This document shows positions 4,753-25,585 of a stretch of DNA of 64,000 bases, piece by piece. Positions within the stretch are counted from its first letter, which is position 1. Each line of letters opens with the position of its first letter. The DNA comes from Anaeromyxobacteraceae bacterium (GTDB taxonomy: Bacteria; Myxococcota; Myxococcia; Myxococcales; Anaeromyxobacteraceae), in contig JASGHJ010000002.1 of the NCBI GenBank assembly GCA_047602405.1, positions 1,472,001 through 1,536,000 of the forward strand, written 5' to 3'. Made by a program: the position numbers and the translations under genes. The notes beneath the pieces were generated by a model. It was given only the letters and a program-made list of their open reading frames with translations, ran no database searches and had not been told where the DNA came from.

Positions 4753-8435
<3,683 letters not shown>

Positions 8436-13654: not shown

Positions 13655-14074
13655 TCAGGGCCGCACCCCGGGCGCCGGCGCGGGCGGCTTCGAAGCCGGC
13701 TCCTGGTGGAGCTCGATCCGGCCGCGCCGGGCGCTCCCCTCCGGGCCGGCCTCGGCCGCGAGGTAGACCGGCCGCGCGGACGGCGCCATCGCGAGGCTGT
13801 CCTTGTTGCAGACCTCCACGCACACCCCGCAGGCGACGCAGCGCAGGTGCTCGAGGGCGAAGGTGCGGGCCTCCTTCGAGACCGCGATGGCGGCCGCCGG
13901 GCAGCGGCGAGCGCACAGCCCGCAGAAGACGCAGGACGCGATGTCGACGGCCACGTGGCCGCGGGCCAGCGGCACGGGCGGCCGGACCTCGGCCGGGTAG
14001 CGCCGGGTCGCGGGCCTCGAGACGAGGTTCCTGAGCGCGAGCGGCAGGAGCGGGAGCTTCAGCGGGTTCGCCAT
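13655..14074 (-). CDS. echF: Ech hydrogenase 2x[4Fe-4S] subunit
   Basis: PATRRYP; CVFCGLCARRCP and CVACGVCVEVC motifs; last gene of the ech operon. Confidence 0.85.
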   Translation of the reverse strand: MANPLKLPLLPLALRNLVSRPATRRYPAEVRPPVPLARGHVAVDIASCVFCGLCARRCPAAAIAVSKEARTFALEHLRCVACGVCVEVCNKDSLAMAPSARPVYLAAEAGPEGSARRGRIELHQEPASKPPAPAPGVRP

Positions 14075-14076
14075 CG

Positions 14077-15168
14077 TCAGCGCTCCGTGCAGCTGATGCA
14101 GGGGTCGATCGTGAGGATGATGTTCGGGACGTCGGCGAGGTCGCAGTCCTTGAGGAGCTGGATCATCGCGGGCAGGTTGCCGAACGTGGGCGTGCGCGCC
14201 CGGAAGCGCTCCAGGAACTTCGTCCCGTTGCCGCGCAGGTAGTAGACGACCTCGCCGCGGGGCTGCTCGAGCCGGACGAAGGCCTCGCCCGACGGCGTGC
14301 CGCGGACCTTCGCGACGAGCGGCCCGTCGGCGGGCGGGATGCGCGCGATGGCCTGCTTCACGAGGTCGATGGCCTGGTCGAGCTCGCGCACGCGCACCTT
14401 GCACCGCGCCAGGCAGTCGCCGTCCTGCTCGAGGACGGGCTCGAAGGCGAGCTCGTGGTAGCGCGGGAAGTCCTCGTCCCCGCCCATCCGGACGTCGAGC
14501 GCCACGCCGGAGGCGCGCGCCATCGGCCCCACCGCGCCGGTGCGCACGGCCTCCTCGCGGGAGAGGTGGCCGACGCCGGCGAGGCGGTGGTGGATCGAGG
14601 CGTCCTCGAAGAAGACCTTCCTGACCTCGCGGAGGTCCTCGCGGAGCTGGTCGAGCGTCCGCTCGATGTGCTGGAGGGCGTCGGGCGCGACGTCCCGTGC
14701 CACGCCGCCGATCCGGTTGACCGAGAAGATGATGCGCCCGCCGGTGGTCTGGTCGAAGAGGTCGATGACCCGCTCGCGCAGCCGCCAGCAGTGCATGAAC
14801 AGGTTCTCGAAGCCGAAGCCGTCCGCCGCGAGCCCGAGCCACAGGAGGTGGCTGTGGATCCGCGAGAGCTCCGCCCAGATCAGCCGGAGCCACTGGGCGC
14901 GGGCCGGGACGTCGACCTTCATGATCCGCTCGACGCCCATCGCGTAGCCCATGCCGTGCATGAAGCTGCAGATGCCGCAGATGCGATCGGCGACGTTGCC
15001 GAAGTCGGTGAACTCGACCTTCTCGACCATCGCCTCGAGGCCGCGGTGGACGTAGCCGATGGCGGGCACCGCGTCGACCACGCGCTCGTCCTCGAGGACG
15101 AGGTCGAGCACGATCGGCTCGGGCAGCACGGGGTGCTGCGGGCCGAACGGGATGAACGTGCGCTTCAT
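14077..15168 (-). CDS. echE: Ech (group 4) [NiFe] hydrogenase large subunit
   Basis: PFGPQHP, GYVHRG, L1 RICGICS and L2 DPCISCTER at the extreme C-terminus with no cleavable extension. Confidence 0.93.
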   Translation of the reverse strand: MKRTFIPFGPQHPVLPEPIVLDLVLEDERVVDAVPAIGYVHRGLEAMVEKVEFTDFGNVADRICGICSFMHGMGYAMGVERIMKVDVPARAQWLRLIWAELSRIHSHLLWLGLAADGFGFENLFMHCWRLRERVIDLFDQTTGGRIIFSVNRIGGVARDVAPDALQHIERTLDQLREDLREVRKVFFEDASIHHRLAGVGHLSREEAVRTGAVGPMARASGVALDVRMGGDEDFPRYHELAFEPVLEQDGDCLARCKVRVRELDQAIDLVKQAIARIPPADGPLVAKVRGTPSGEAFVRLEQPRGEVVYYLRGNGTKFLERFRARTPTFGNLPAMIQLLKDCDLADVPNIILTIDPCISCTER

Positions 15169-15546
15169 GACACCTTGCCCCGGGCGGCGAGCCGCTCCTT
15201 GATGGCCTTGCCGGAGAACGGGACCTTCCGGGAGGTCCGGTAGAGCTCGCCGCGGAAGTCGACGGTGAGCCCGGTCACGTCCACGCCGAAGAAGCTCGCG
15301 GATCTCGTTCTCGTAGAGGAAGGCGGACCCGAAGAGGGCCGACAGGCTCGGCACCCGCGCGCCGTGCTCGACCCGCTCGCGCAGGTGCTGGAGCTTGCCG
15401 CCCTGCTCGAAGGTCCAGACGAGGTCGACGTCGCCCTCCTCCTGGCCGGCCGCGGGCGGCAGGCCGGTCGCGTTGATGAGGACGAGCCGCCAGCCCGCCT
15501 TCGCGAGGCGCTCCGCCTCCCCGAGGAACCGCTCCGCGTCGATCAC
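15165..15546 (-). CDS. echD: Ech hydrogenase subunit D (NuoC-like); one extra base near 15291
   Basis: VPSLSALFGSAFLYENEIREL continues as FGVDVTGLTVDFRGELY in the +1 frame; span is 3n+1; start and stop overlap the neighbouring genes. Confidence 0.8.
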
Positions 15547-15965
15547 GACTCCCTCCGCTTCCGCTCCAGGATCTCCACGCCCCGCAGGACCCCGTCGATG
15601 ATGCTCTCGGGGCGCGCGGCACAGCCGGGCACGTACGCGTCGACCGGGATCACCTGGTCGATGCCGCCCTTCACGTTGTAGGCCCGGGCGAAGATGCCCC
15701 CCGAGCTCGCGCAGGCGCCGACCGCGACCACGACCTTGGGGTCGGGCATCTGCCGGTAGAGGTTCTGGACCACGTCGACGTTCCGCTCGTTGACGCTGCC
15801 GGTCACGAGGAGGATGTCGGCGTGCCGCGGGTTGCCGGTGTTGATCACGCCCAGCCGCTCGGCGTCGTAGAGCGGCGTGAGGCAGGCGAGCACCTCGATG
15901 TCGCAGCCGTTGCAGCTCGAGGCGTCGTAGTGCAGCACCCACGGGGACTTCGACAGGGAGGACAC
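15543..15965 (-). CDS. echC: Ech hydrogenase small subunit (NuoB-like)
   Basis: KSPWVLHYDASSCNGCDIE, GACASSGG and YVPGCAARPE motifs. Confidence 0.92.
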   Translation of the reverse strand: MSSLSKSPWVLHYDASSCNGCDIEVLACLTPLYDAERLGVINTGNPRHADILLVTGSVNERNVDVVQNLYRQMPDPKVVVAVGACASSGGIFARAYNVKGGIDQVIPVDAYVPGCAARPESIIDGVLRGVEILERKRRES

Positions 15966-15966
15966 G

Positions 15967-16822
15967 TCACCACCCCCGGAGGGAGACGAGGAGGGCGTTG
16001 CCGCCGGCGAGGAGCAGCGTCGCCGCCCAGGCCGAGCGCAGCATGAGCTGCCACGTCGCGCGCGCGGTGACGTTGTCCACGAGGATCTCGAGGAAGAGCG
16101 CCAGGAGGGCGGCGCCGATCGCGAGGGGCACGCTCCAGTTGAAGAAGAGGCAGGACGAACAGCCCCAGCAGCACGGTCTCGATCCAGTGGCCGAGCTCGA
16201 CCCAGGCGAGGAGGCGCGCCGACATGTCGGAGGTGAGCCCGCGCACGAGCTCCTGGTGGGCGTGGTGCGAGGTCGAGAGGTCGAAGGGCGACTTGCGCAG
16301 CTTGATGGTGACCACGACGAGGAACGCGAGGAGCACGCCCGGCAGCGCGAGCGCCACCTTGACCGGCGAGGCGAGGACGCCGGGCAGGGTGCTCGCGCCG
16401 GTCACGCGGCAGACGAGCGCCGCGAGCAGGATGAGGAGCGGCTCGGTCGCGAGCAGCGCCACGAGCTCGCGCTCGGCCCCCGCCGAGCCGAACGGCGAGT
16501 CCGCCGACCCGGCCGCGAGCGTGAGCAGGAGGGAGGAGAGGGCGAAGACGAAGGTGGCGAGGAGGAGGTCGCCGCCGCCGACGACGAGCGCGCCGGCGAG
16601 GGCCATCGTGACCACGTGCCCGAGGAGCAGCGGCTCGGCGAGGCCGTTCACCGTGCGGACCTCCTTCGAGAGGAGCTTGCCGAGGTCGAAGAACGGCTGC
16701 AGGAGCGGCGGCCCGATCCGGCCCTGCATGCGGGCGGTGACGACCCGGTCGGCGCCGGCGAGGAGGCCGCCGGCGAGCGGGGCGAGGAGGACGAACGCGA
16801 GGGCGGACAGGAGCGGGCTCAC
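15967..16822 (-). CDS. echB: Ech hydrogenase membrane subunit B (NuoH-like); one extra base near 16150
   Basis: DRVVTARMQGRIGPPLLQPFFDLGKL, KSPFDLSTSHHAHQELVRG; the C-terminal ILVDNVTARATWQ lies in the +1 frame; span is 3n+1. Confidence 0.85.
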
Positions 16823-18744
16823 GGCTTCACCACCGCGCCGAGGAGGAGGGTCGCGGCGACGACCACGGCACCGAGGGCCGCGCCGGCGCGGAACACGCGC
16901 CCGCCGTCGAGGAGGCCCCGCAGGTAGAAGTTGCGCGTCGAGAGCTCGCGCGCGCCCCCGCGCGGGGACGAGACCGTGTGCGAGGCGGAGACGGTCCGGC
17001 CCGAGACGTAGATGCCGCCGAGGTCGTGGGTGGGCCGCACCGTGAGACGCCACGCGGCGAGGGGCAGGAACGCGGTGGCCACCACCAGCGCCGGGGCCAT
17101 CCAGGGGTCGAGCGCGAGGAGCGGTCCCTCGCCCCCGGGGAGCGCGGCCTGGACCCACGGGGACACGACCGCGCTCGAGAGCACGCCCACGCCGCCGGCG
17201 AGCCCGAGCACGAGCGCGGCGTGGGTGGTCTCGGCGAACCACTCGAACCCGCTCACGCGGGCCTCGATGGCGCGCTCGGGCTCCGGGATCGCCCGGGTCG
17301 CGAGGACCTTCAGGAGCAGCTTCGCCCAGTAGTAGAGGGTGCAGCCGCTGCCGAACGAGAGCACGAGGAGGGCGACCGCGCCCGCCCACCCCGGGAGCAT
17401 CAGGAAGGCGCGGATGGCGGTCCACTTCGCGATCACCACGCCGAAGGGCGCGATGAACATGCCGGCGATGCCGGTGAGCGCGAGCACCGCCACCCGGGGG
17501 AGCCGCGAGACGAGGTGGTCGAGGTTCTCGAGGTCCTTCGTGTAGAAGCGGTTCTCGAGGGTGCCGACGACGAGGAAGAGCAGGCTCTTCGCGACCGCGT
17601 GGAAGATCACGAGCATCACCGCCGCCCAGAGCGCCACCGCGTTCGCGAGGCCGGCGCACGCGACGATGAGCCCGAGGTTCGCGAGGGTCGAGCAGGCGAG
17701 CACCTTCTTCGCGTTCTGCTCCCCGACCGCCACGAGCGAGGCGGTGAGGAACGTGAGGAGGCCGACGGTCGCCACGCCGCCGCCGACGACCGTGCCGGCC
17801 ATGGCGGGGGCGAGCCGGATGAGGAGGAAGACGCCCGCCTTCACCATGGTCGAGGAGTGGAGCAGGGCGGAGGTGGGCGTGGGCGCGTACATGGCGCCGA
17901 GGAGCCAGGACGAGAACGGCAGCTGCGCGCTCTTCGTGAGCCCCGCGAGGGCGAGCAGGCCGAGCGCCGGGACCGCGGCGGGGCCGAGCGCGCCGGAGGC
18001 GAGCGTGGCCACGTCGAGCCCGCCGGGGATGCGCGCGAGGAGGAGGATGGCGACGGCGAAGCCGAGGCCGCCGAGGAGGTTCAGCTCGAGGGCCCGGAAC
18101 GCGTACCCGATCGTCTCCTCGGTGCGCGTGTAGCCGATGAGGAGGAACGAGCAGAGCGTCGTCACCTCCCAGAACAGGTACAGGTGCGGCAGCTCGTTCG
18201 CGACGACGAGGCCGAACATCGCCGAGACGAACACGAACAGCAGGAAGAAGAACGAGGTGCGCCGGCCGGCGACCTGCGGGTGCTGCCGGTGGTAGTCGCG
18301 CATGTAGCCGAGCGCGTGGACGCAGATGAGCGTCCCCAGGATCCCGACGATCGCGATCATGACCACAGAGAGGTGATCGACGCGGAGCGCGCGGCCCTCG
18401 ACCGCCTCGGGGTGGCCGGTCCACTCGAGCCAGGCGCCGATCCCGAACTGCGCGACGGCGAGGGCCGGGGCGAGGGGCCGGCGGTGCCGGAGGCCCAGGC
18501 CGACGACGAGCAGGGCGAGCGCGGCCTCCACCGCGAGGACGAGGTGCGGCGGCAGCTCTACCGGCGCCGCGAGGAAGGCCGGGCCGGTCCCGGCGAACTC
18601 GACCGCGACGGCGAGCGTGGCCGCCGCCACAGTCACGCAGGCGGCGAGCACCACCGCGGTGCGGCGCGCCGGCCGGGTGGTGAAGAGCAGCGCGGCGCTC
18701 GCGGCGAGCGGGACGAGGAGGAGCGTGACGAGGAGCGGGAGCAT
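16819..18744 (-). CDS. echA: Ech hydrogenase membrane antiporter-like subunit A (NuoL/MrpA-like)
   Basis: FWEVTTLCSFLLIGY, KSAQLPFSSWLLGAMYAPTPTSALLHSSTMVKAG, HAVAKSLLFL. Confidence 0.9.
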   Translation of the reverse strand: MLPLLVTLLLVPLAASAALLFTTRPARRTAVVLAACVTVAAATLAVAVEFAGTGPAFLAAPVELPPHLVLAVEAALALLVVGLGLRHRRPLAPALAVAQFGIGAWLEWTGHPEAVEGRALRVDHLSVVMIAIVGILGTLICVHALGYMRDYHRQHPQVAGRRTSFFFLLFVFVSAMFGLVVANELPHLYLFWEVTTLCSFLLIGYTRTEETIGYAFRALELNLLGGLGFAVAILLLARIPGGLDVATLASGALGPAAVPALGLLALAGLTKSAQLPFSSWLLGAMYAPTPTSALLHSSTMVKAGVFLLIRLAPAMAGTVVGGGVATVGLLTFLTASLVAVGEQNAKKVLACSTLANLGLIVACAGLANAVALWAAVMLVIFHAVAKSLLFLVVGTLENRFYTKDLENLDHLVSRLPRVAVLALTGIAGMFIAPFGVVIAKWTAIRAFLMLPGWAGAVALLVLSFGSGCTLYYWAKLLLKVLATRAIPEPERAIEARVSGFEWFAETTHAALVLGLAGGVGVLSSAVVSPWVQAALPGGEGPLLALDPWMAPALVVATAFLPLAAWRLTVRPTHDLGGIYVSGRTVSASHTVSSPRGGARELSTRNFYLRGLLDGGRVFRAGAALGAVVVAATLLLGAVVKP

Positions 18745-19212
18745 CTAGCGGCCTCGACGGTGGGGCGCGCCGGCCGGGGCGCGGGAGGTCTCTTCCAGGA
18801 GGTGCTCGACCGCCTCGACGAGGACGGCGGGGGCGAGCGGCTTCTCGACGTAGCGGTGCACGGGGAGCCAGCCGTCGCGGTCCTGCGCCTCGAGGTCGGC
18901 CTCGTCGAGGTGGTCGTCCACGCCCGTGAGCATCAGGATTGGCGTGGCCGGGTGGGCCTTCGCCATCCAGCGCGCGAGCTCGAAGCCCGCGTCGAAGCGC
19001 TCCATCATCACGTCCAGGATCAGGAGGTCCGGGCGGAGCGCTTCCACGGCGGTGCGCCCCTCCGCGGCGGAGTGGGCGACCGAGGCGCGGTGGCCCGCCG
19101 CCTCGAGGACCGCCCGGTGCCGGGCGACGAGGTCGACGTCGTCGTCGACGATCAGGACGTGGGCGTGCGGGGCTTCGTGGACCGCGGACACGTGCGTGCC
19201 TTTCTCGGCCAC
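18745..19212 (-). CDS. Stand-alone response regulator (receiver domain only)
   Basis: VLIVDDD, DLLILDVMM, LMLTG and EKP motifs; abuts echA. Confidence 0.88.
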   Translation of the reverse strand: MAEKGTHVSAVHEAPHAHVLIVDDDVDLVARHRAVLEAAGHRASVAHSAAEGRTAVEALRPDLLILDVMMERFDAGFELARWMAKAHPATPILMLTGVDDHLDEADLEAQDRDGWLPVHRYVEKPLAPAVLVEAVEHLLEETSRAPAGAPHRRGR

Positions 19213-19280
19213 GGAGGGTGGCCAGGAGGTGGTGCGGAGCCTCCACGCGGACCGGACGCCGGGCCGCCGCCGGGCCCTGG

Positions 19281-19297
19281 AGCAAAGTTCCGGCCAA
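19281..19297 (-). promoter_or_regulatory. Putative sigma54 (-24/-12) promoter for the receiver-echABCDEF operon
   Basis: Minus strand reads TTGGCCGGAACTTTGCT: GG-N10-GC with TTGC, close to consensus YTGGCACG-N4-TTGCW, about 70 nt upstream of the first gene. Confidence 0.6.
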
Positions 19298-19542
19298 CGC
19301 GAGGGCCCGGGCAGACCTGGGGCATTTCACCCAGGCCCGGCCGCGATCGGCGTCTGGCGGGCCGCGACCGGCGACGCGGGCCGTGAACCGGGACGCGCGA
19401 CCGCTCCACGGGTCATGGCGCGGAGGTGTGGCGTTGCGCCGCGCCACGGCGCGCGCTGCGCGATCACGCAGAATCCGCGCGTCCCGCACCCGTTTCGCGG
19501 TGGGTGCGGGCATTGCAGGGCACGACGTGAGGAGGATTTCGC

Positions 19543-21558
19543 ATGGAAACCGGGGTCTCGGATCGGAGGGCCGGCGCACGCGATGCGGAGCCCGCGCTCG
19601 TCTTCACGGCCGGGGACCGCTGCCGCCTCTGCTTCACGTGCCTGCGCGAGTGCCCGGCGAAGGCCATCCAGGTCAAGGGAGGCCAGGCGGCGGTCGTGTC
19701 GGAGCGCTGCGTCGCCTGCGGCCACTGCGTGCGGGTGTGCAGCCAGGGGGCGAAGCAGTACCGGCGGGACGTCGACGAGGTGCGGGCCCTGCTCGCCTCC
19801 GGCGCGCGCGCGGCGATCTGCCTCTCCCCCGTGTTCCCCGTGGAGTTCGACGACGTCCCGGAGCCGCGCCTCCTGGGCCGGCTCCGTGCCCTCGGCTTCG
19901 CGTTCGTGGTGGACGCCGGCTTCGGCAACGACCTCGTCGCGCGCGCCTACCGCGAGCTCCTCTCGCCGGAGGGGGGCGGGCGGCGCCGCATCGCCACGAC
20001 CTGCCCGGCCATGGTCGGCTACGTCGAGCGGTTCCACCCGGCGCTCGTCCCGGCGCTCGCGCCGGTGGTGTCGCCGATGGTGGCGATCGCGCGGTGGCTC
20101 CGCGCGGAGCACGGCGAGGACCTCCAGGTCGTCTACGCGGGCCCGTGCGTGGCGAAGAAGGCCGAGCGCCGGGCCCCGGACGTCGCGGGCGACGTCGCCC
20201 GGGTGCTCACCTTCGACGAGCTGCGGGAGCTGTTGCGGGGCGCGCCGGGCGACGCACCGGACGGCGGGTTCGACGGCCCGGCCGGCTTCGGCGCCCCGCT
20301 GAAGGTCCAGCTCGGCAGGCCGGGGGCGCGGCCGCGCCCGCCGCACGCGGTGGTCTCGGCCGACGGCCGGCTCCGGGCCTACGAGGCGGTCGAGGAGGCC
20401 GCCTCCGGCGCGGTCGAGGCGGAGCTCCTGCACCTGCTCTCCTGCCGCGGCTGCGTCGAGGGCCCGGGCTGCACGACCCGGGCGCCGCACTTCGCGCGGG
20501 TCGGGGCGCTCTCCCGCCACGCGCGGGAGCGGCTGACCCGCTTCGACGAGCCCGCCTGGACGCGCCGGCTGGACGCGGCCGAGGCGCTCCCGCTCGACCG
20601 GACGTTCGCCGCGCGCGACGTGCGGCAGAGGGCGCCGAAGGACGCGGTGCTGGACGGGATCCTCGCTCGCCTCGGCAAGGCGCGGCCGCAGGACGAGCTC
20701 AACTGCGGCGCCTGCGGGTACGAGACCTGCCGCGGCCTCGCCCGGGCGATCCACGCCGGGCTGGCCGAGCCCGACATGTGCCTCCCGTCGAGCGTGGAGC
20801 ACCTCCGGGCGGCCCTCTCCGACCTCGCCGACGCGAACCAGCGGCTCGCGAGCACGCAGGACGCGCTCGCGCACGCGGAGCGGCTCGCCAACCTCGGCCA
20901 GCTCGCCGCGGGCGTGGCCCACGAGCTCAACAACCCGCTCGGCGTCATCCTCGTCTACGCGCACCTCCTCCTCGACGCCTGCCCGCCCGAGCGACCCGAC
21001 CGCCCGGATCTCGCGCTCATCGCCGAGCACGCCGACCGCTGCCGCCGGATCGTGAGCGGCCTCCTCGACTTCGCCCGGCAGAACAAGCTCGTGGTGCAGG
21101 CGGTGGACCTCCCCCGGCTCGTCGCGAACGCGCTCCGCGCCGCGCCCCCGCCCGCCGGGATCGAGGTGGTCACGGCGCACGCGGGCGACCCGGTGGCCGC
21201 GCTCGACCGGGACCAGCTCGCGCAGGTGCTGGCGAACCTCGTCGGGAACGCCTACGACGCGATGCCCGAGGGCGGGCGCCTCACCGTGCGGACCTCGGGG
21301 GACGCGGATCGCGTGCGGATCGAGGTCGAGGACACCGGCACCGGGATCCAGCCCGAGCACCTCGGCCGGGTGTTCGAGCCGTTCTTCTCGACGAAGCCCA
21401 TCGGGCGGGGCACCGGCCTCGGGCTCGCGGTCTGCTACGGGATCGTGAAGGTCCACCGCGGCGAGCTCGCGGTGCGCTCGAACGCGGACCCGGCCCGCGG
21501 GCCGCGGGGGACGACCTTCAGCGTGGTGCTGCCCCGCCGGGTGGAGGCGTCGCCGTGA
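19543..21558 (+). CDS. [FeFe]-hydrogenase-like (group C/HydS-type) Fe-S sensor histidine kinase
   Basis: Two ferredoxin motifs (CRLCFTCLRECP, CVACGHCVRVC); H-cluster-like motifs TTCP, GPCVAKKAE, LSCRGCVEGPG; FeS motif LNCGACGYETC...MC; H-box AHELNNPL; HATPase N/G1/F/G2 boxes. Confidence 0.85.
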   Translation: METGVSDRRAGARDAEPALVFTAGDRCRLCFTCLRECPAKAIQVKGGQAAVVSERCVACGHCVRVCSQGAKQYRRDVDEVRALLASGARAAICLSPVFPVEFDDVPEPRLLGRLRALGFAFVVDAGFGNDLVARAYRELLSPEGGGRRRIATTCPAMVGYVERFHPALVPALAPVVSPMVAIARWLRAEHGEDLQVVYAGPCVAKKAERRAPDVAGDVARVLTFDELRELLRGAPGDAPDGGFDGPAGFGAPLKVQLGRPGARPRPPHAVVSADGRLRAYEAVEEAASGAVEAELLHLLSCRGCVEGPGCTTRAPHFARVGALSRHARERLTRFDEPAWTRRLDAAEALPLDRTFAARDVRQRAPKDAVLDGILARLGKARPQDELNCGACGYETCRGLARAIHAGLAEPDMCLPSSVEHLRAALSDLADANQRLASTQDALAHAERLANLGQLAAGVAHELNNPLGVILVYAHLLLDACPPERPDRPDLALIAEHADRCRRIVSGLLDFARQNKLVVQAVDLPRLVANALRAAPPPAGIEVVTAHAGDPVAALDRDQLAQVLANLVGNAYDAMPEGGRLTVRTSGDADRVRIEVEDTGTGIQPEHLGRVFEPFFSTKPIGRGTGLGLAVCYGIVKVHRGELAVRSNADPARGPRGTTFSVVLPRRVEASP

Positions 21559-22724
21559 CGCCGGCCGCCGCCGACGGGCCGCTCACCCTCTCGGTGCTCG
21601 TCGTGGACGACGAGCCCGGGATGCGCCTCGGGGCGGCCCGGGTGCTCGCGGGCTTCCGCTGCGCGCCGCCGGAGGCCGAGGGGCGGGAGGTCGCGCTGCG
21701 GGTCGAGGCCGTCGAGACCGGCGAGGCCGCGCTGGAGCGCATCCGGGCGGAGCGGCCCGACCTCGTGCTCCTCGACGAGCGGCTGCCGGGGCTCTCGGGG
21801 CTGGAGGTCCTCGCCCGCCTCGCGGCCGAGGCGCCCGAGGTGCTCACGGTCATGGTGACCGCCTACGCGACGCTCGGGGCCGCCGTCGCCGCGACGAAGC
21901 GCGGCGCGTTCGACTTCCTCGCGAAGCCGTTCACGCCCGACGAGCTCAGGGCCACCGTGGAGAAGGCGGTCCGGCACGCCCTGCTCCTGCGGCAGGCGCG
22001 CCGCCACGCCGACGAGCGCCGCCGCATCCGGTTCGAGTTCGTGTCGGTGCTGGCGCACGAGCTCAAGGCGCCGCTCTCCGCGGTGGAGGGGAACCTGCTC
22101 GACATGGAGGCCGGCGTGTTCGGCCCGGACCTCGCGAGCTACCGGGCCTCGGTCGCGCGCGGCGTCGAGCGGCTGCGCGGGATGCGGCGGCTCGTGGCGG
22201 ACCTGCTCGACCTCACCGCCATCGAGTCCGGGGAGCGCCGCCGCGCGCTCGTCACCCTCGAGGTCGGCGCGGTGGCGGCGGCCATCCTCGACGGGTTCTC
22301 GCGGGCCGCTGGGGAGGCGGGCGTCGCGCTCCGGCTGGCCCCCGCGGACCCGGTCTGGGCCGAGGTCGACCGGCGCGAGCTCGAGCTCGTCCTCACGAAC
22401 CTCGTCGACAACGCCATCAAGTACAACCGGCGCGGCGGCCGCGTGGAGGTCGCGGTGGCGCCGGTCGATGGCCGGGTCCGCGTGGTGGTGGAGGACACCG
22501 GCATCGGCATCGCGCCGGAGGAGGCCGCGGGCCTCTTCAAGGAGTTCGTCCGCGTGCGCACCGCCGAGACCCGGCACCTGCCCGGCAGCGGCCTCGGGCT
22601 CGCCACGGTCCGCAAGGTCGCGCAGCTCTACGGGGGCGACGCCACGCTCCGGAGCGAGCCCGGCGCGGGCACGCGCGTCGAGGTCGAGCTCGGCCCGGTC
22701 GCGGCAGGGCCCCGGGGGAGCTGA
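21555..22724 (+). CDS. Hybrid receiver-histidine kinase
   Basis: VVDDE...LLDERLPG...TAY...KPF receiver; AHELKAPL H-box; NLVDNAIKY, DTGIG and GSGLGL boxes; GTG overlaps the upstream TGA. Confidence 0.9.
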   Translation: MTPAAADGPLTLSVLVVDDEPGMRLGAARVLAGFRCAPPEAEGREVALRVEAVETGEAALERIRAERPDLVLLDERLPGLSGLEVLARLAAEAPEVLTVMVTAYATLGAAVAATKRGAFDFLAKPFTPDELRATVEKAVRHALLLRQARRHADERRRIRFEFVSVLAHELKAPLSAVEGNLLDMEAGVFGPDLASYRASVARGVERLRGMRRLVADLLDLTAIESGERRRALVTLEVGAVAAAILDGFSRAAGEAGVALRLAPADPVWAEVDRRELELVLTNLVDNAIKYNRRGGRVEVAVAPVDGRVRVVVEDTGIGIAPEEAAGLFKEFVRVRTAETRHLPGSGLGLATVRKVAQLYGGDATLRSEPGAGTRVEVELGPVAAGPRGS

Positions 22725-22757: not shown

Positions 22758-24494
22758 TCAGGGCGTGTAGACGCCCGCGGTGAGCCCCTTCGCCGCGCCG
22801 TCGACGGTCACGGTCCCGTGGCTGCCCGCGGGCGTACCCGTCGCCCCCTTCACCGAGAGCGCGCCGGCGAGCGTGGAGGTGCCGCCGGAGCTGTGCACGG
22901 TCACGAGACCGCCGTTGCCGCCGGCGCCGCCCGCTCCCGGCGGCCCGCCGTTCGCGAGCACCTTCGGCGCCGCGACGGTCTTGCCGCTCAGCCAGACCTC
23001 GTTCCCGTGGCCACCCTGACCGCTCGCGGCCGTGGCCCTGCCGCCGAAGGACTCGATCCCGGGCTCGATGCTCAGGGTGCCCGCGGGGGAGGGGGCCGCG
23101 CCCGCCACGGCCTGCGAGTACACCGAGAGCGGCCCGGCGTCGCCGCCCGCCTGCGCGCCGTCGCCGCCGTTCGCGAGGAGCGCGTCCAGGCCGGTGACGA
23201 CGAGGGGACCGGAGGTGCCCGGCGCGACCTCGTTCTGCCAGACCTGGAGCTCGCAGAGGCCGCCGCTCCCACCCACCTGGCCGTCGCCACCGGTGGCGTC
23301 GAGGCCGGCGTGCACGTACGCCGCGAGCGTGCCGCCCGAGCGGGCGGAGAGCGTGCGGCTCTGGAGGCCGATCTCGCCGCCGTCGCCGCCCTGGCCCACG
23401 GTGGCGCTGCCGTCGCCGCCCGCGGAGCGCGCCTCTCCCAGGAACCAGAGCGCGTCGTTCACCGCCTGGACGTCGATGTCGCCGCCGTTCCCGCCCTGGC
23501 CCGCGGAGGCGGCGCCGCCGCGCGTGTCGAGCGCGCCGGTCACCACGACGAAGCCCGCGCAGCTCGCGACCCGCAGGGACCCGCCGGGTCCGCCCGCGAC
23601 CGTGCCCGCGCCGCCGCGGTTCTCGACGGGGCCCGTGACGGCGACGTCGCCCTCGCCGGGCGTGTTGGAGTAGCAGGGGATGATGAGGCTGACGTAGCCC
23701 GCCTCACCGCCGGGCCCCGCCGTGCCCGCGCCGCCGCTCGCGCGGATCGTGCCCGCCTGGAGCCACGCCACCGAGCCCGCCTCGAGGACGATCTGGCCGC
23801 CTTGCCCGCCGGAGGTCCCGTCGCCGCCCCGGCCGTCGATGAGGCCCCGGTTCGTGATGCCCTCGACCGTCTCCACCTGGAGGGAGCCGCCCGTGCCGCC
23901 GGGGGCGCCGGTCAGCTCGACGACGCCGGTCTCGCTCACGTGCAGGGCGCGCGCGACGAGGCGCACGAAGCCGCGGTTCGCGGGCTGGGCCGCGCGGTAG
24001 TGCAGCCGGAGCGTGCCGTCGACGACGATCCCGTCCGCGAGGCGGATCGTCGCCCAGTCGCCCGCGTTCGGCGCGAGCGTGACGGTCGCGCCGGCCTTCA
24101 CCCAGAGCCCGGTGGCCGCGCCGGCCTGATCGCCCGGGACGTGGTCCGACAGGTCCGGCTGGAGGGTCGTGCTCGCGGCGAGGGTCCGCGGGTTCGCGCC
24201 CAGGCCCGGGACGCCGGGCGAGAGCGTCGGGGCGGCGGGCACGGTGGTCGACTTCTTCACCTGGATGTCGCCGCCGTACGAGACGATCCTCACCTCGCCC
24301 CCGGGCCCGCCGGCCGTGGCGCCGTCTCCACCGCGGGTCCAGCCACCGGCTGACGCGGTGGGATCCGAGCCGCCTCCGCCCCCTCCGCCCCCTCCACCTC
24401 CACCTCCGCCCCCTCCTCCTCCGCCGCCCCCGCCCCCACTGCAGGCGGCGAGGAGCGCGAGGGCGAGGGTGACGACGGCCGCATGGCGGGGCAT
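22758..24494 (-). CDS. Glycine-rich lipoprotein with poly-Gly linker and GGxGG repeats (PE_PGRS-like)
   Basis: Lipobox LLAAC followed by 23 Gly codons; recurring GGxGG-x-beta-strand units; AAGGAG RBS. Confidence 0.75.
   Translation of the reverse strand: MPRHAAVVTLALALLAACSGGGGGGGGGGGGGGGGGGGGGGGSDPTASAGGWTRGGDGATAGGPGGEVRIVSYGGDIQVKKSTTVPAAPTLSPGVPGLGANPRTLAASTTLQPDLSDHVPGDQAGAATGLWVKAGATVTLAPNAGDWATIRLADGIVVDGTLRLHYRAAQPANRGFVRLVARALHVSETGVVELTGAPGGTGGSLQVETVEGITNRGLIDGRGGDGTSGGQGGQIVLEAGSVAWLQAGTIRASGGAGTAGPGGEAGYVSLIIPCYSNTPGEGDVAVTGPVENRGGAGTVAGGPGGSLRVASCAGFVVVTGALDTRGGAASAGQGGNGGDIDVQAVNDALWFLGEARSAGGDGSATVGQGGDGGEIGLQSRTLSARSGGTLAAYVHAGLDATGGDGQVGGSGGLCELQVWQNEVAPGTSGPLVVTGLDALLANGGDGAQAGGDAGPLSVYSQAVAGAAPSPAGTLSIEPGIESFGGRATAASGQGGHGNEVWLSGKTVAAPKVLANGGPPGAGGAGGNGGLVTVHSSGGTSTLAGALSVKGATGTPAGSHGTVTVDGAAKGLTAGVYTP
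24369..24437 (-). repeat. (GGN)23 poly-glycine coding tract
   Basis: 23 consecutive Gly codons with mixed third positions directly after the lipoprotein Cys-Ser. Confidence 0.9.
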
Positions 24495-24688
24495 GGACTT
24501 CTCCTTCACCCAGGGTTCCCGCGAGTGTAAAGGCGCCGGCGCGGGGCCGCACGGCCGCGACCTCGGAGGGTGCCCTGTGACGGGCGTCACGGCAGGCGCC
24601 TTCTCGGGGCGTGCATTTGCGGTCACTCGGCGGCGCTTCGTAGGATCGGGCCTCGCGTCCCTGCCCCTGCGGGCGCCTCGGGGGAACC

Positions 24689-25585
24689 ATGCGCCGCCTG
24701 CTCACGCCCTTCCTCGCCGCCGCGCTCGCGACGGCGGCCTGGCCGTCCCGGGCCTCCGGCCCCGCCGACGGCGACCGCGGCCCGGTCATCGATCGCGCCG
24801 ACGCCGACGCCGCGAAGGCGCACCTGTTCATCCGCGGGCGGAACCTCGGGCGCCACGGGCCCACCGTCACGCTCGGCAACGTGCCGCTCGAGATCGAGAG
24901 CGCGTCGCCGACCGACGTCGTCGCGCGGCTGCCGTCGCCGCTCCCCGACGCGAGCTACCGGCTCGTGCTGACGACCGGTGGCCGGCGCGAGGAGCGCTCG
25001 TTCCACGGCGGCGGTGGGAGGGACGCCTGGGGCGAGGCGGTGTTCGAGGTCGCGATCGGCGCCGGGGAGCCGGGGCCGGTCGGGCCCACGGGCCCGACGG
25101 GGCCGGCGGGCCCGCAGGGCGCGAAGGGAGACAGGGGCGATCCGGGCCCGCAGGGCGCCCAGGGCCTCGCGGGCGCGCCCGGCGCGAAGGGCGATCCGGG
25201 GCCGGCCGGGGCCGCGGGCGCCACCGGCCCGACCGGCCCGACCGGCCCCGCCGGTCCGCAGGGGCCGAAGGGCGACAAGGGCGACCCGGGGTCCGGGACG
25301 GTGGACGCGCGGTTCGGGAACGACACGAACACCTTCGCGGAGGGGCGCGGCCGGGAATGCACGCTCGGCGAGATCATCCTGAGCGCGAGCGCCGTCGTGA
25401 ACGGGGTGCCCGCGAACGGCCAGATCCTCTCGATCAGCCAGAACACGGCGCTCTTCTCGCTGCTCGGCACGATGTACGGCGGGGACGGCCGCACCACCTT
25501 CGCGCTCCCGGACCTCCGCGCCGTCGCGCCGAACGGGCTCACGTACTCGATCTGCGTGAGCGGGATCTTCCCGAGCCGGAACTGA
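24689..25585 (+). CDS. Secreted collagen-like protein with an Ig/TIG-like N-domain and a C-terminal phage tail-collar domain
   Basis: Signal peptide; 25 Gly-X-Y triplets; [34 protein letters not shown] tail-collar motif; C-terminal [11 protein letters not shown]. Confidence 0.85.
25064..25288 (+). repeat. Collagen (Gly-X-Y)25 coding repeat
   Basis: [27 protein letters not shown] ... GPK GDK GDP. Confidence 0.9.

Follow-up and report, generated by a model that had tools for sequence, protein, structure and literature searches.

The window analysed, 64,000 nucleotides of contig JASGHJ010000002.1 from an Anaeromyxobacteraceae bacterium (GCA_047602405.1), contains an Ech [NiFe] hydrogenase operon that faces a divergently transcribed sensor kinase with an [FeFe]-hydrogenase-like domain (Table 1). 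On the minus strand a gene for a lone receiver is followed directly by echA to echF, with abutting or overlapping junctions throughout, and on the plus strand a 671-aa sensor kinase precedes a 389-aa REC-HisKA-HATPase hybrid kinase, the two genes overlapping by GTGA. The initial annotation had placed a lone receiver ahead of echABCDEF, and every gene was found at its given position; domain searches likewise agree with its description of a divergent kinase carrying 2x[4Fe-4S], an H-cluster-like domain, an extra Fe-S motif and HisKA-HATPase next to a receiver-kinase hybrid, and the motifs TTCP, GPCVAKKAE and SCRGCVEGPG are all present in the sensor. GC3 across the cassette is 0.98–0.99, with no sign of recent transfer.

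Table 1 Features of the sensor–ech locus (window coordinates)
Feature	Coordinates	Strand	Evidence
echF, 2x[4Fe-4S] ferredoxin-like subunit	13655–14074	-	Fer4_7 and NuoI-like matches
echE, [NiFe] large subunit, RICGIC and DPCISC motifs	14077–15168	-	Motifs and relatives
echD, with +1 base at ~15292, probably an assembly error	15165–15546	-	Frame compared with related contigs
echC, small subunit	15543–15965	-	Oxidored_q6
echB, membrane subunit, with +1 base at ~16151, probably an assembly error	15967–16822	-	NADHdh
echA, antiporter-like membrane subunit	16819–18744	-	Domain matches
Single-domain receiver, first ech-operon gene, D67 intact	18745–19212	-	Domain, alignment, tree
Divergent intergenic region, 330 bp	19213–19542		No sigma70-like or sigma54-like site found
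Sensor kinase: 2x[4Fe-4S], H-domain, Cx2Cx4Cx16C cluster, signalling helix, HisKA, HATPase	19543–21558	+	Domains, alignment, AlphaFold
REC-HisKA-HATPase hybrid kinase (D74, H168), overlapping sensor stop codon	21555–22724	+	Domains

The hydrogenase has the standard A–F subunit order, six subunits and [NiFe] L1/L2 motifs of group 4e as outlined in HydDB (PMC5037454), with hyp genes located elsewhere as in that group, while the single-domain receiver as first operon gene distinguishes it from group 4e generally. EchE, which carries both nickel motifs, ends three residues past its last Cys and has no cleavable tail; many of its closest relatives bear the name 'ech hydrogenase subunit E', and among 363 genomes of the order only two, the present one included, have it at E ≤ 1e-120. 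The absence of hyp genes reported initially is confined to the window, as HypA, B, C, D (two copies) and F are encoded elsewhere in the genome; that of hydEFG extends to the whole genome. The single extra base in each of echB and echD was overlooked previously. The sequences used for comparison, a 93%-identical contig or contigs of sequencing run X1, lack both bases, and of 139 genes tested in the assembly 11 are frameshifted, with errors falling at GATC and GCTCTTC words, so the two ech frameshifts are probably assembly errors. A pseudogene operon was rejected on this basis with residual doubt, since coding sequence across the genome averages about one shift per 14 kb and the ech operon, with two in ~5 kb, is somewhat denser.

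The sensor matches Fe_hyd_lg_C at 98.9 bits (cut-off 22.1) and also holds PF04060 FeS, HisKA and HATPase domains. Its N-terminal 2x[4Fe-4S] cysteines (C27–C66), the [4Fe-4S]H ligands of the H-domain (C154, C202, C301 and C304) and the Cx2Cx4Cx16C cluster (C388–C413) are all present, and the phosphorylatable His and Asp sites are intact in all three signalling proteins (H460 in the sensor, D74 and H168 in the hybrid kinase, D67 in the receiver, numbered from the GTG at 19212 as the true receiver start is uncertain). The AlphaFold model adopts a hydrogenase fold (VIA Z 38.5, rmsd 2.9, 354 aligned). Uniting 2x[4Fe-4S], H-domain, Cx2Cx4Cx16C and HisKA-HATPase in one chain, and nesting phylogenetically within them, the sensor belongs with the kinase-fused group C [FeFe] hydrogenases; its three-gene module is common and known. 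HydDB lists the family as group C1, 'histidine kinase-linked (putative)' (PMC5037454), while another classification assigns forms with HisKA to C3 and those with HATPase alone to C1, with the His-kinase type C3 'BfuT' downstream of BfuABC (PMC11406978). Domain order and hybrid-kinase partner here are those of the family, but its neighbour is HydABC, whereas here it is Ech, HydE, HydF and HydG were not found and the diiron pocket is remodelled; the accessible text of these two sources describes no such variant and no biochemical test.

Changes in the sensor concentrate where the diiron subcluster would sit. Cavity residues are numbered as in CpI and were assigned by motif via group A HydA, the placement of I268 being provisional; the 15 cavity positions comprise a published list plus G418 and G422, added here. 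Among 189 ordinary family rows (not all independent; seven broken or paralogous rows dropped), the equivalents of A230-P231-S232 are A, P and S/T in 189/189 each, whereas this sensor has S-P-V, with L and R at the equivalents of F417 and V423. Residues seen in <5% of the family occupy 6/15 cavity positions, against a maximum of three in any ordinary row, and this exceeds the background (24/305, Fisher p=0.001). The relative P0002 is altered at 8/15 positions (p=5e-5) and P0003, the third member of the clade, at only 3/15 (p=0.12). The FP..G(L/M) segment is also altered, and its predicted helix is lost: residues ~247–266 are modelled at pLDDT 55–70, while the equivalent model of an ordinary member shows a helix in that segment at 92–95. 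The distal-cyanide residues (Lys, Ser-Pro-Met) are kept. Two other signs did not survive comparison. The missing P1 proton-transfer Cys, which had been advanced as an argument for cofactor loss, is a family-wide feature (T, S, P, D or N at this position in 182/189 rows), and group C/D enzymes without it are described as still binding the H-cluster (PMC10407848); the CxGC spacing of P3 and the short P2–P3 stretch, considered as peculiarities of this sensor, are family-wide relative to group A.

The host genome (98.4% complete, 2 contigs) has the sensor as its sole PF02906 match, with no other [FeFe] hydrogenase found, and whole-genome searches did not find HydG, HydF (best model match 69.6 bits, cut-off 325.6) or HydE (30.8, cut-off 254.6). 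HydG is present in 56 of 64 genomes with ordinary family members, a count in which one genome appears twice (G051 and G448), including 14/14 of the same phylum. Maturase absence is nevertheless not decisive for cofactor loss, because most archaea encoding [FeFe] hydrogenases are reported to lack maturases (PMC11216029) and neither HydG nor HydF was found in five actinobacterial MAGs (completeness not known) with ordinary sensors, three of which adjoin a HydA with intact motifs. Taken with the pocket-specific changes, the genome-wide absence backs the earlier suspicion of an H-cluster-less sensor, and the protein has likely lost the diiron half of the cluster, though it keeps all of its Fe-S cysteines. 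The rival view, that it still senses H2 with a full H-cluster obtained through an unrecognised maturation route or as scavenged cofactor and so tunes Ech to the H2 level, would be in keeping with H2 as the product of Ech, with the retained four Cys ligands, K358 equivalent (K205) and SP motif, with active [FeFe] hydrogenases reported in maturase-less organisms (PMC11216029) and with the five MAGs. We consider it unlikely: those MAGs keep the ordinary pocket, whereas the otherwise invariant APS and the FP..G(L/M) segment with its helix are changed here, and the genome holds no catalytic [FeFe] enzyme.

The lone receiver is encoded by an ech-operon gene, which immediately precedes echA in 23 of 24 related ech loci. 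In the tree it groups with ech-locus receivers at 99/96, which nest among receivers of [FeFe]-sensor loci at 99/97, indicating descent from receivers of the same sensor module; an Atlas search returned generic response regulators only. The phospho-site is Glu in 23/23 ech-locus receivers, beside which no sensor was found, and Asp here, as in 93 of 94 receiver matches from sensor loci. As the Glu receivers form one clade, they count as one event. The functional tie between sensor and Ech proposed initially draws support from this Asp; sensor and ech were seen together on no other single contig. HydA (normally as HydABC) neighbours the sensor in 59/80 sensor loci and Ech in 0/80, none of 13 long ech loci has the sensor, with hypB in the divergent position in 12/13, and a close EchE occurs in only 1 of 64 sensor genomes. 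This distribution would suit a sensor pair that acts on another target and adjoins ech by chance, with the receiver served by one of the many other kinases in the host genome, and the two parts do have separate affinities, the sensor with Myxococcota-type sensors and the receiver with ech receivers. We judge such a coincidence improbable, given a receiver whose Asp is retained here next to a kinase but is Glu in the related ech loci in which no sensor was found, its apparent descent from the same module, and run X1, whose ~90% alike contigs tile the ech genes, receiver, sensor and hybrid kinase at similar depth, with no contig bridging receiver and sensor among the eight pieces listed. The sister sensor P0012 (support 97/88) and a 73%-identical EchE, P0125, share a longest contig value of 131,602, which is a hint only.

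The sensor forms a clade with P0002 and P0003 (100/100 support from the kinase part alone), 65–76% identical over the sensor part, while the closest ordinary members are 50–54% identical over it. None of 91 other genomes of the host's family carries the sensor, and 13 other matches among 401 phylum genomes reach no more than 54% identity. A word-indexed search for further members returned only the three, a profile search of 1.84 billion representatives gave 64 matches with no clade member among the 13 examined, and none of 273 pattern matches from a metagenome scan with a segment specific to the clade was a relative. This rarity, and the unlike loop lengths of the three members (26, 23 and 29, against 29–30 in ordinary members), could be taken to mean that the sensor is a decaying, functionless leftover of a HydABC regulatory module with a drifting pocket. 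Decay of this kind is hard to reconcile with the conservation observed and we regard it as a poor explanation: all 16 cluster Cys and H460 are retained in all three members, here both Asp sites remain and the two reading frames are unbroken, the ferredoxin, FeS and kinase domains are 75–94% identical within the clade, and among the 18 X1 differences displayed for the sensor gene (40 of 128 differences being displayed), 11 fall at third codon positions. Sensor residues 223–310 are gap-free in the X1 contigs.

We propose, with roughly an even chance of being right, that the protein is an H-cluster-less Fe-S sensor of the ferredoxin redox state, possibly of O2, which signals to Ech at the protein level through the receiver. 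Electrons from the ferredoxin pool, the substrate of Ech itself, would enter through the N-terminal 2x[4Fe-4S], reach the Cx2Cx4Cx16C cluster, where the signalling helix begins, by way of the [4Fe-4S]H that is left, and switch autophosphorylation of H460; O2 damage of an exposed cluster is the main alternative input. The host encodes heme-copper oxidase-family genes and 2-oxoacid:ferredoxin oxidoreductases. Phosphate would then move to D74 of the hybrid kinase, switching its H168, and onward to D67 of the receiver, which may act on Ech activity or assembly. It is likely that the module originally worked with HydABC and was taken over for a [NiFe] enzyme after HydABC and HydEFG had gone. Of the three-protein phosphorelay envisaged initially, the relay itself is consistent with the intact His and Asp sites and the receiver–Ech tie, but transcriptional control of ech is unsupported; since sensor, hybrid kinase and receiver contain no DNA-binding domain, a protein-level output of the receiver is favoured, and protein-level control of Ech fits better than control of ech transcription. 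Divergent regulator–operon layouts usually do signify transcriptional control, and a GAFTGA-type activator lies within 10 kb in 2/80 sensor loci, but a module working through a DNA-binding regulator encoded elsewhere (e.g. a sigma54 activator), with the receiver only as phosphate sink or relay, is improbable, as no DNA-binding partner conserved with the module was found among the sensor loci, the intergenic region yielded no promoter-like site (sigma70-like or sigma54-like) and no convincing repeat, and a Glu receiver, unable to serve as sink or relay, is nonetheless kept with ech in 23 loci.

Several known systems share parts of this design. A regulatory [NiFe] hydrogenase with its HoxJ kinase (group 2b in HydDB) likewise connects a hydrogenase-like sensor through a His kinase to another hydrogenase. 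The output of the HoxJ system is the DNA-binding activator HoxA. There the sensor is a separate [NiFe] enzyme, whereas here a single [FeFe]-type chain combines sensor and kinase, with no DNA-binding output. TmHydS (group C, M2f) and TamHydS (group D, M2e), as described in PMC8163306 and PMC10407848, have the same N-terminal 2x[4Fe-4S], lack of a C299 equivalent and C-terminal Cx2Cx4Cx16C as this sensor; they are putative sensory hydrogenases, both with low H2 turnover, and [2Fe]adt has been used to mature TamHydS. A PAS domain is present in TmHydS and no output is fused to TamHydS, while here HisKA-HATPase is fused directly and there is probably no diiron site. A precedent for a hydrogenase fold with [4Fe-4S]H and without [2Fe]H in maturase-less organisms is Nar1/IOP1/CIAO3, and the clusters of Nar1 are described as O2-labile and the protein as a proposed redox or O2 component (PMC12621388). 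The role of Nar1 is in cytosolic Fe-S assembly, and it lacks a kinase. The sensor, likened to it by description, would be an analogue and not a member, and its phylogenetic placement suggests that it arose independently, from within the bacterial sensor family. We put forward only tentatively, and as a rather doubtful possibility, that the Nar1 transition was repeated in a bacterial lineage, in which shedding of the diiron site gave a pure Fe-S redox or O2 sensor kinase that switches Ech directly via the single-domain receiver, an accessory part of this Ech type that other lineages would have locked by an Asp-to-Glu change. The open-access literature searched yielded no account of an Ech-linked sensor lacking maturases, or of this receiver.

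If a repeated Nar1 transition of this kind is correct, it would constitute a post-translational switch on an energy-converting hydrogenase, and would imply that the whole widespread module regulates hydrogenases at the protein level. Group C hydrogenases are called H2 sensors, with no signal output demonstrated in the parts of the literature surveyed. Together, an ordinary member that has the maturases and the pocket and a derived one lacking both, each with the same kinase, form a natural control pair with which to distinguish a kinase response to H2 chemistry from one to the redox state of an Fe-S wire only, and the Asp/Glu split of the ech-linked receiver offers a concrete, testable output in protein-level control of Ech. 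Metagenome counts of 'sensory [FeFe] hydrogenases' also include proteins that are probably unable to bind the H-cluster.

The three-gene sensor module itself is widespread. Of 7994 sequences scored against the sensor part, 3199 are relatives at E ≤ 1e-20. A sample of 80 GTDB loci from approximately 1900 matching stretches, several of them short contigs, contained the hybrid kinase in 69, a lone receiver in 65, HydA in 59 and HydG in 23; none of the 80 had Ech. HydG is encoded in 56 of 64 genome entries with the sensor family; of these 64, 50 come from the 80 loci and 14 are genomes of the same phylum, with one counted twice. As described in the available parts of PMC5037454 and PMC11406978, kinase-linked group C of HydDB and the kinase-bearing BfuT both match the module, although BfuT adjoins BfuABC whereas the neighbour in the window is Ech. 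Two Bacteroidales loci (L013:3375-5246; L071:3521-5470) present a second, divergently oriented sensor paralogue with altered pocket motifs (DPSI, GPCID).

The receiver, echABCDEF, sensor and hybrid kinase all lie where the initial annotation had placed them.

Features of the window, with strand and arrangement
Feature	Position	Strand	Remarks
Single-domain receiver	19212-18745	minus	abuts echA
echABCDEF	downstream of receiver	minus	junctions abutting or overlapping
Sensor, 671 aa	across 330-bp gap from receiver	plus	2x[4Fe-4S], Fe_hyd_lg_C, Cx2Cx4Cx16C cluster, HisKA, HATPase
Hybrid kinase (REC-HisKA-HATPase)	overlaps sensor gene	plus	
One long frame	5724-8375	minus	resembles what we take, from motifs, to be a tRNA-guanine transglycosylase fused to an MnmD-like methyltransferase
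Gly-rich 622-aa frame; divergent collagen-repeat protein	22758-25585		no Pfam match for the frame; phage tail-collar domain in the collagen-repeat protein

In the window assembly, echB and echD carry one extra base each, both absent from a 93%-identical contig and from contigs of sequencing run X1. Frameshifts appear in 11 of 139 tested genes of the source genome (~8%), with errors concentrated at GATC and GCTCTTC words. Both ech sites lie in a GCTCTTC context, and the systematic +1 insertions at the two words (e.g. C2:1617261, C2:3585096 and C2:851420) suggest methylation-linked long-read errors. Ech is accordingly read as apparently intact, with some doubt left. The search for hyp genes beyond the window located HypA, B, C, D and F on the other contig. 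Besides EchE, the genome encodes two more [NiFe] large subunits; a HoxEFUYH-like NAD-linked [NiFe] hydrogenase lies at C2:833300-838100, and a probable uptake hydrogenase with a hyp cluster containing two hypD copies at C1:1938800-1951000.

Together with its closest relatives, P0002 (76% identity over the sensor part) and P0003 (65%), the window sensor forms a clade supported at 100/100 from the kinase part alone, with the ordinary member P0012 as sister. The APS/T motif, invariant in 189 ordinary rows, reads SPV, SPV and APV in the clade. Fifteen positions of the CpI diiron cavity were compared, the placement of I268 being our assumption. Thirteen are listed in the available part of PMC10147833 and were placed by motif through a group A HydA (profile alignment, probability 99.7), while G418 and G422 are our additions. 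The window sensor has rare residues at 6 of the 15 positions (5 of the 13 listed), compared with at most 3 in ordinary rows, an enrichment over the background of 24 in 305 conserved sites (p=0.001); the same test gave p=5e-5 for P0002 and p=0.12 for P0003. None of the 16 cluster cysteines is lost, and the cyanide-binding Lys and phospho-His also remain. AlphaFold predicts a hydrogenase fold for the sensor, with a confidence drop and a lost helix in the FP..GLL segment, where an ordinary member retains the helix. This segment is presumably the plug closing over [2Fe]H. A plug-lock-lid system is described in PMC12933642, whose available part gives no residue numbers. A ~90% similar relative in X1 has the ech genes, the receiver and the hybrid kinase, and aligns over the shortened pocket segment without a gap. 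The missing P1 Cys, taken initially as a sign of cofactor loss, is uninformative, because group C and D enzymes lack the C299 equivalent according to the parts of PMC8163306 and PMC10407848 available. We consider the diiron site probably absent from the sensor. In another genome of Anaeromyxobacteraceae, a group D-like H-domain protein (L225:1210-2550) upstream of a NuoE-like gene has a P2 motif without Lys and LPT for APS, and is possibly another cofactor-less hydrogenase derivative.

The absence of hydEFG extends beyond the window, as HydE, HydF and HydG were not found in the 98.4% complete, two-contig source genome, in which the sensor is the sole H-domain protein; the sensor is absent from all 91 other genomes of Anaeromyxobacteraceae. 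The suspicion that the sensor lacks an H-cluster gains from these missing maturases and the altered pocket, while the pocket test of P0003 counts against it. Missing maturases are no proof of a missing cofactor (PMC11216029, available part). Seven MAGs with closely related sensors (L014, L015, L018, L019, L020, L022 and L025, from G430, G431, G434, G435, G436, G438 and G440; six actinobacterial and one Bacteroidales by title) gave no HydG match, and the five tested gave no HydF. Five actinobacterial MAGs of unknown completeness without HydG and HydF keep ordinary sensors, three of them (L014, L015 and L019) with an adjacent HydA of intact H-cluster motifs. The HydG-less MAGs are explained either by incomplete binning or by a bacterial lineage whose [FeFe] hydrogenases come without known maturases. 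The only group A-type H-domain match among the 91 genomes is a group A [FeFe] hydrogenase preceded in the same chain by a glutamate-synthase-like flavoprotein domain (L224:1-2832), in a genome of the same genus.

Synteny of sensor and ech, raised in the initial annotation, was not seen in other loci: Ech is missing from the 80 sensor loci and the sensor from all 13 ech loci that extend 3 kb or more upstream (12 of which have a divergent hypB), and the adjacency was seen on the window contig only. Of 64 sensor genomes, one encodes a close EchE, as do 2 of the 363 genomes in the order. It is the receiver that accompanies Ech, directly preceding echA in 23 of the 24 metagenome loci, among 79, that extend far enough upstream. 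Metagenome contigs L117-L189 (e.g. L119:829-6384) share a conserved layout in which a Glu pseudo-receiver gene precedes echABCDEF and lies divergent to ppdK, hypB and hypA. The window receiver is sister to the ech-locus receivers (99/96), and both fall within the receivers from [FeFe]-sensor loci (99/97; supported tree of 42 of the 113 rows in the quick tree); the window EchE likewise falls outside the metagenome loci in the EchE tree. The phospho-acceptor position is Glu in 23/23 ech-locus receivers, a change representing one evolutionary event, and Asp in the window receiver and 93/94 receiver matches of sensor loci. The Glu receiver is kept with ech yet not phosphorylatable, and therefore likely acts on Ech itself, while the window receiver keeps Asp beside the kinases and is therefore likely their target. 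Searches of open-access papers gave no description of a maturase-less, Ech-linked sensor. The module is ordinary; this derived form and the Asp/Glu split make it testable which signal group C kinases perceive and which target they regulate.

Neither the module nor any conserved neighbour has a DNA-binding domain, so Ech would be controlled at the protein level; of the proposed control of ech by the module, the tie between receiver and Ech is supported, while a DNA-binding output is unsupported. Ordinary members would oxidise H2 and thereby reduce the cluster next to the signalling helix; a signalling role for this cluster is proposed in PMC8163306 (available part). Without a diiron site, the same Fe-S wire could be charged from its ferredoxin-like end, and for this reason we favour the ferredoxin pool used by Ech as the input, followed by O2 damage to an exposed cluster, for which Nar1 offers a precedent (PMC12621388, available part). 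The whole reading, an H-cluster-less Fe-S sensor with ferredoxin-pool or O2 input and protein-level control of Ech, we regard as evenly balanced. The host encodes oxidase-family and ferredoxin-reducing enzymes.
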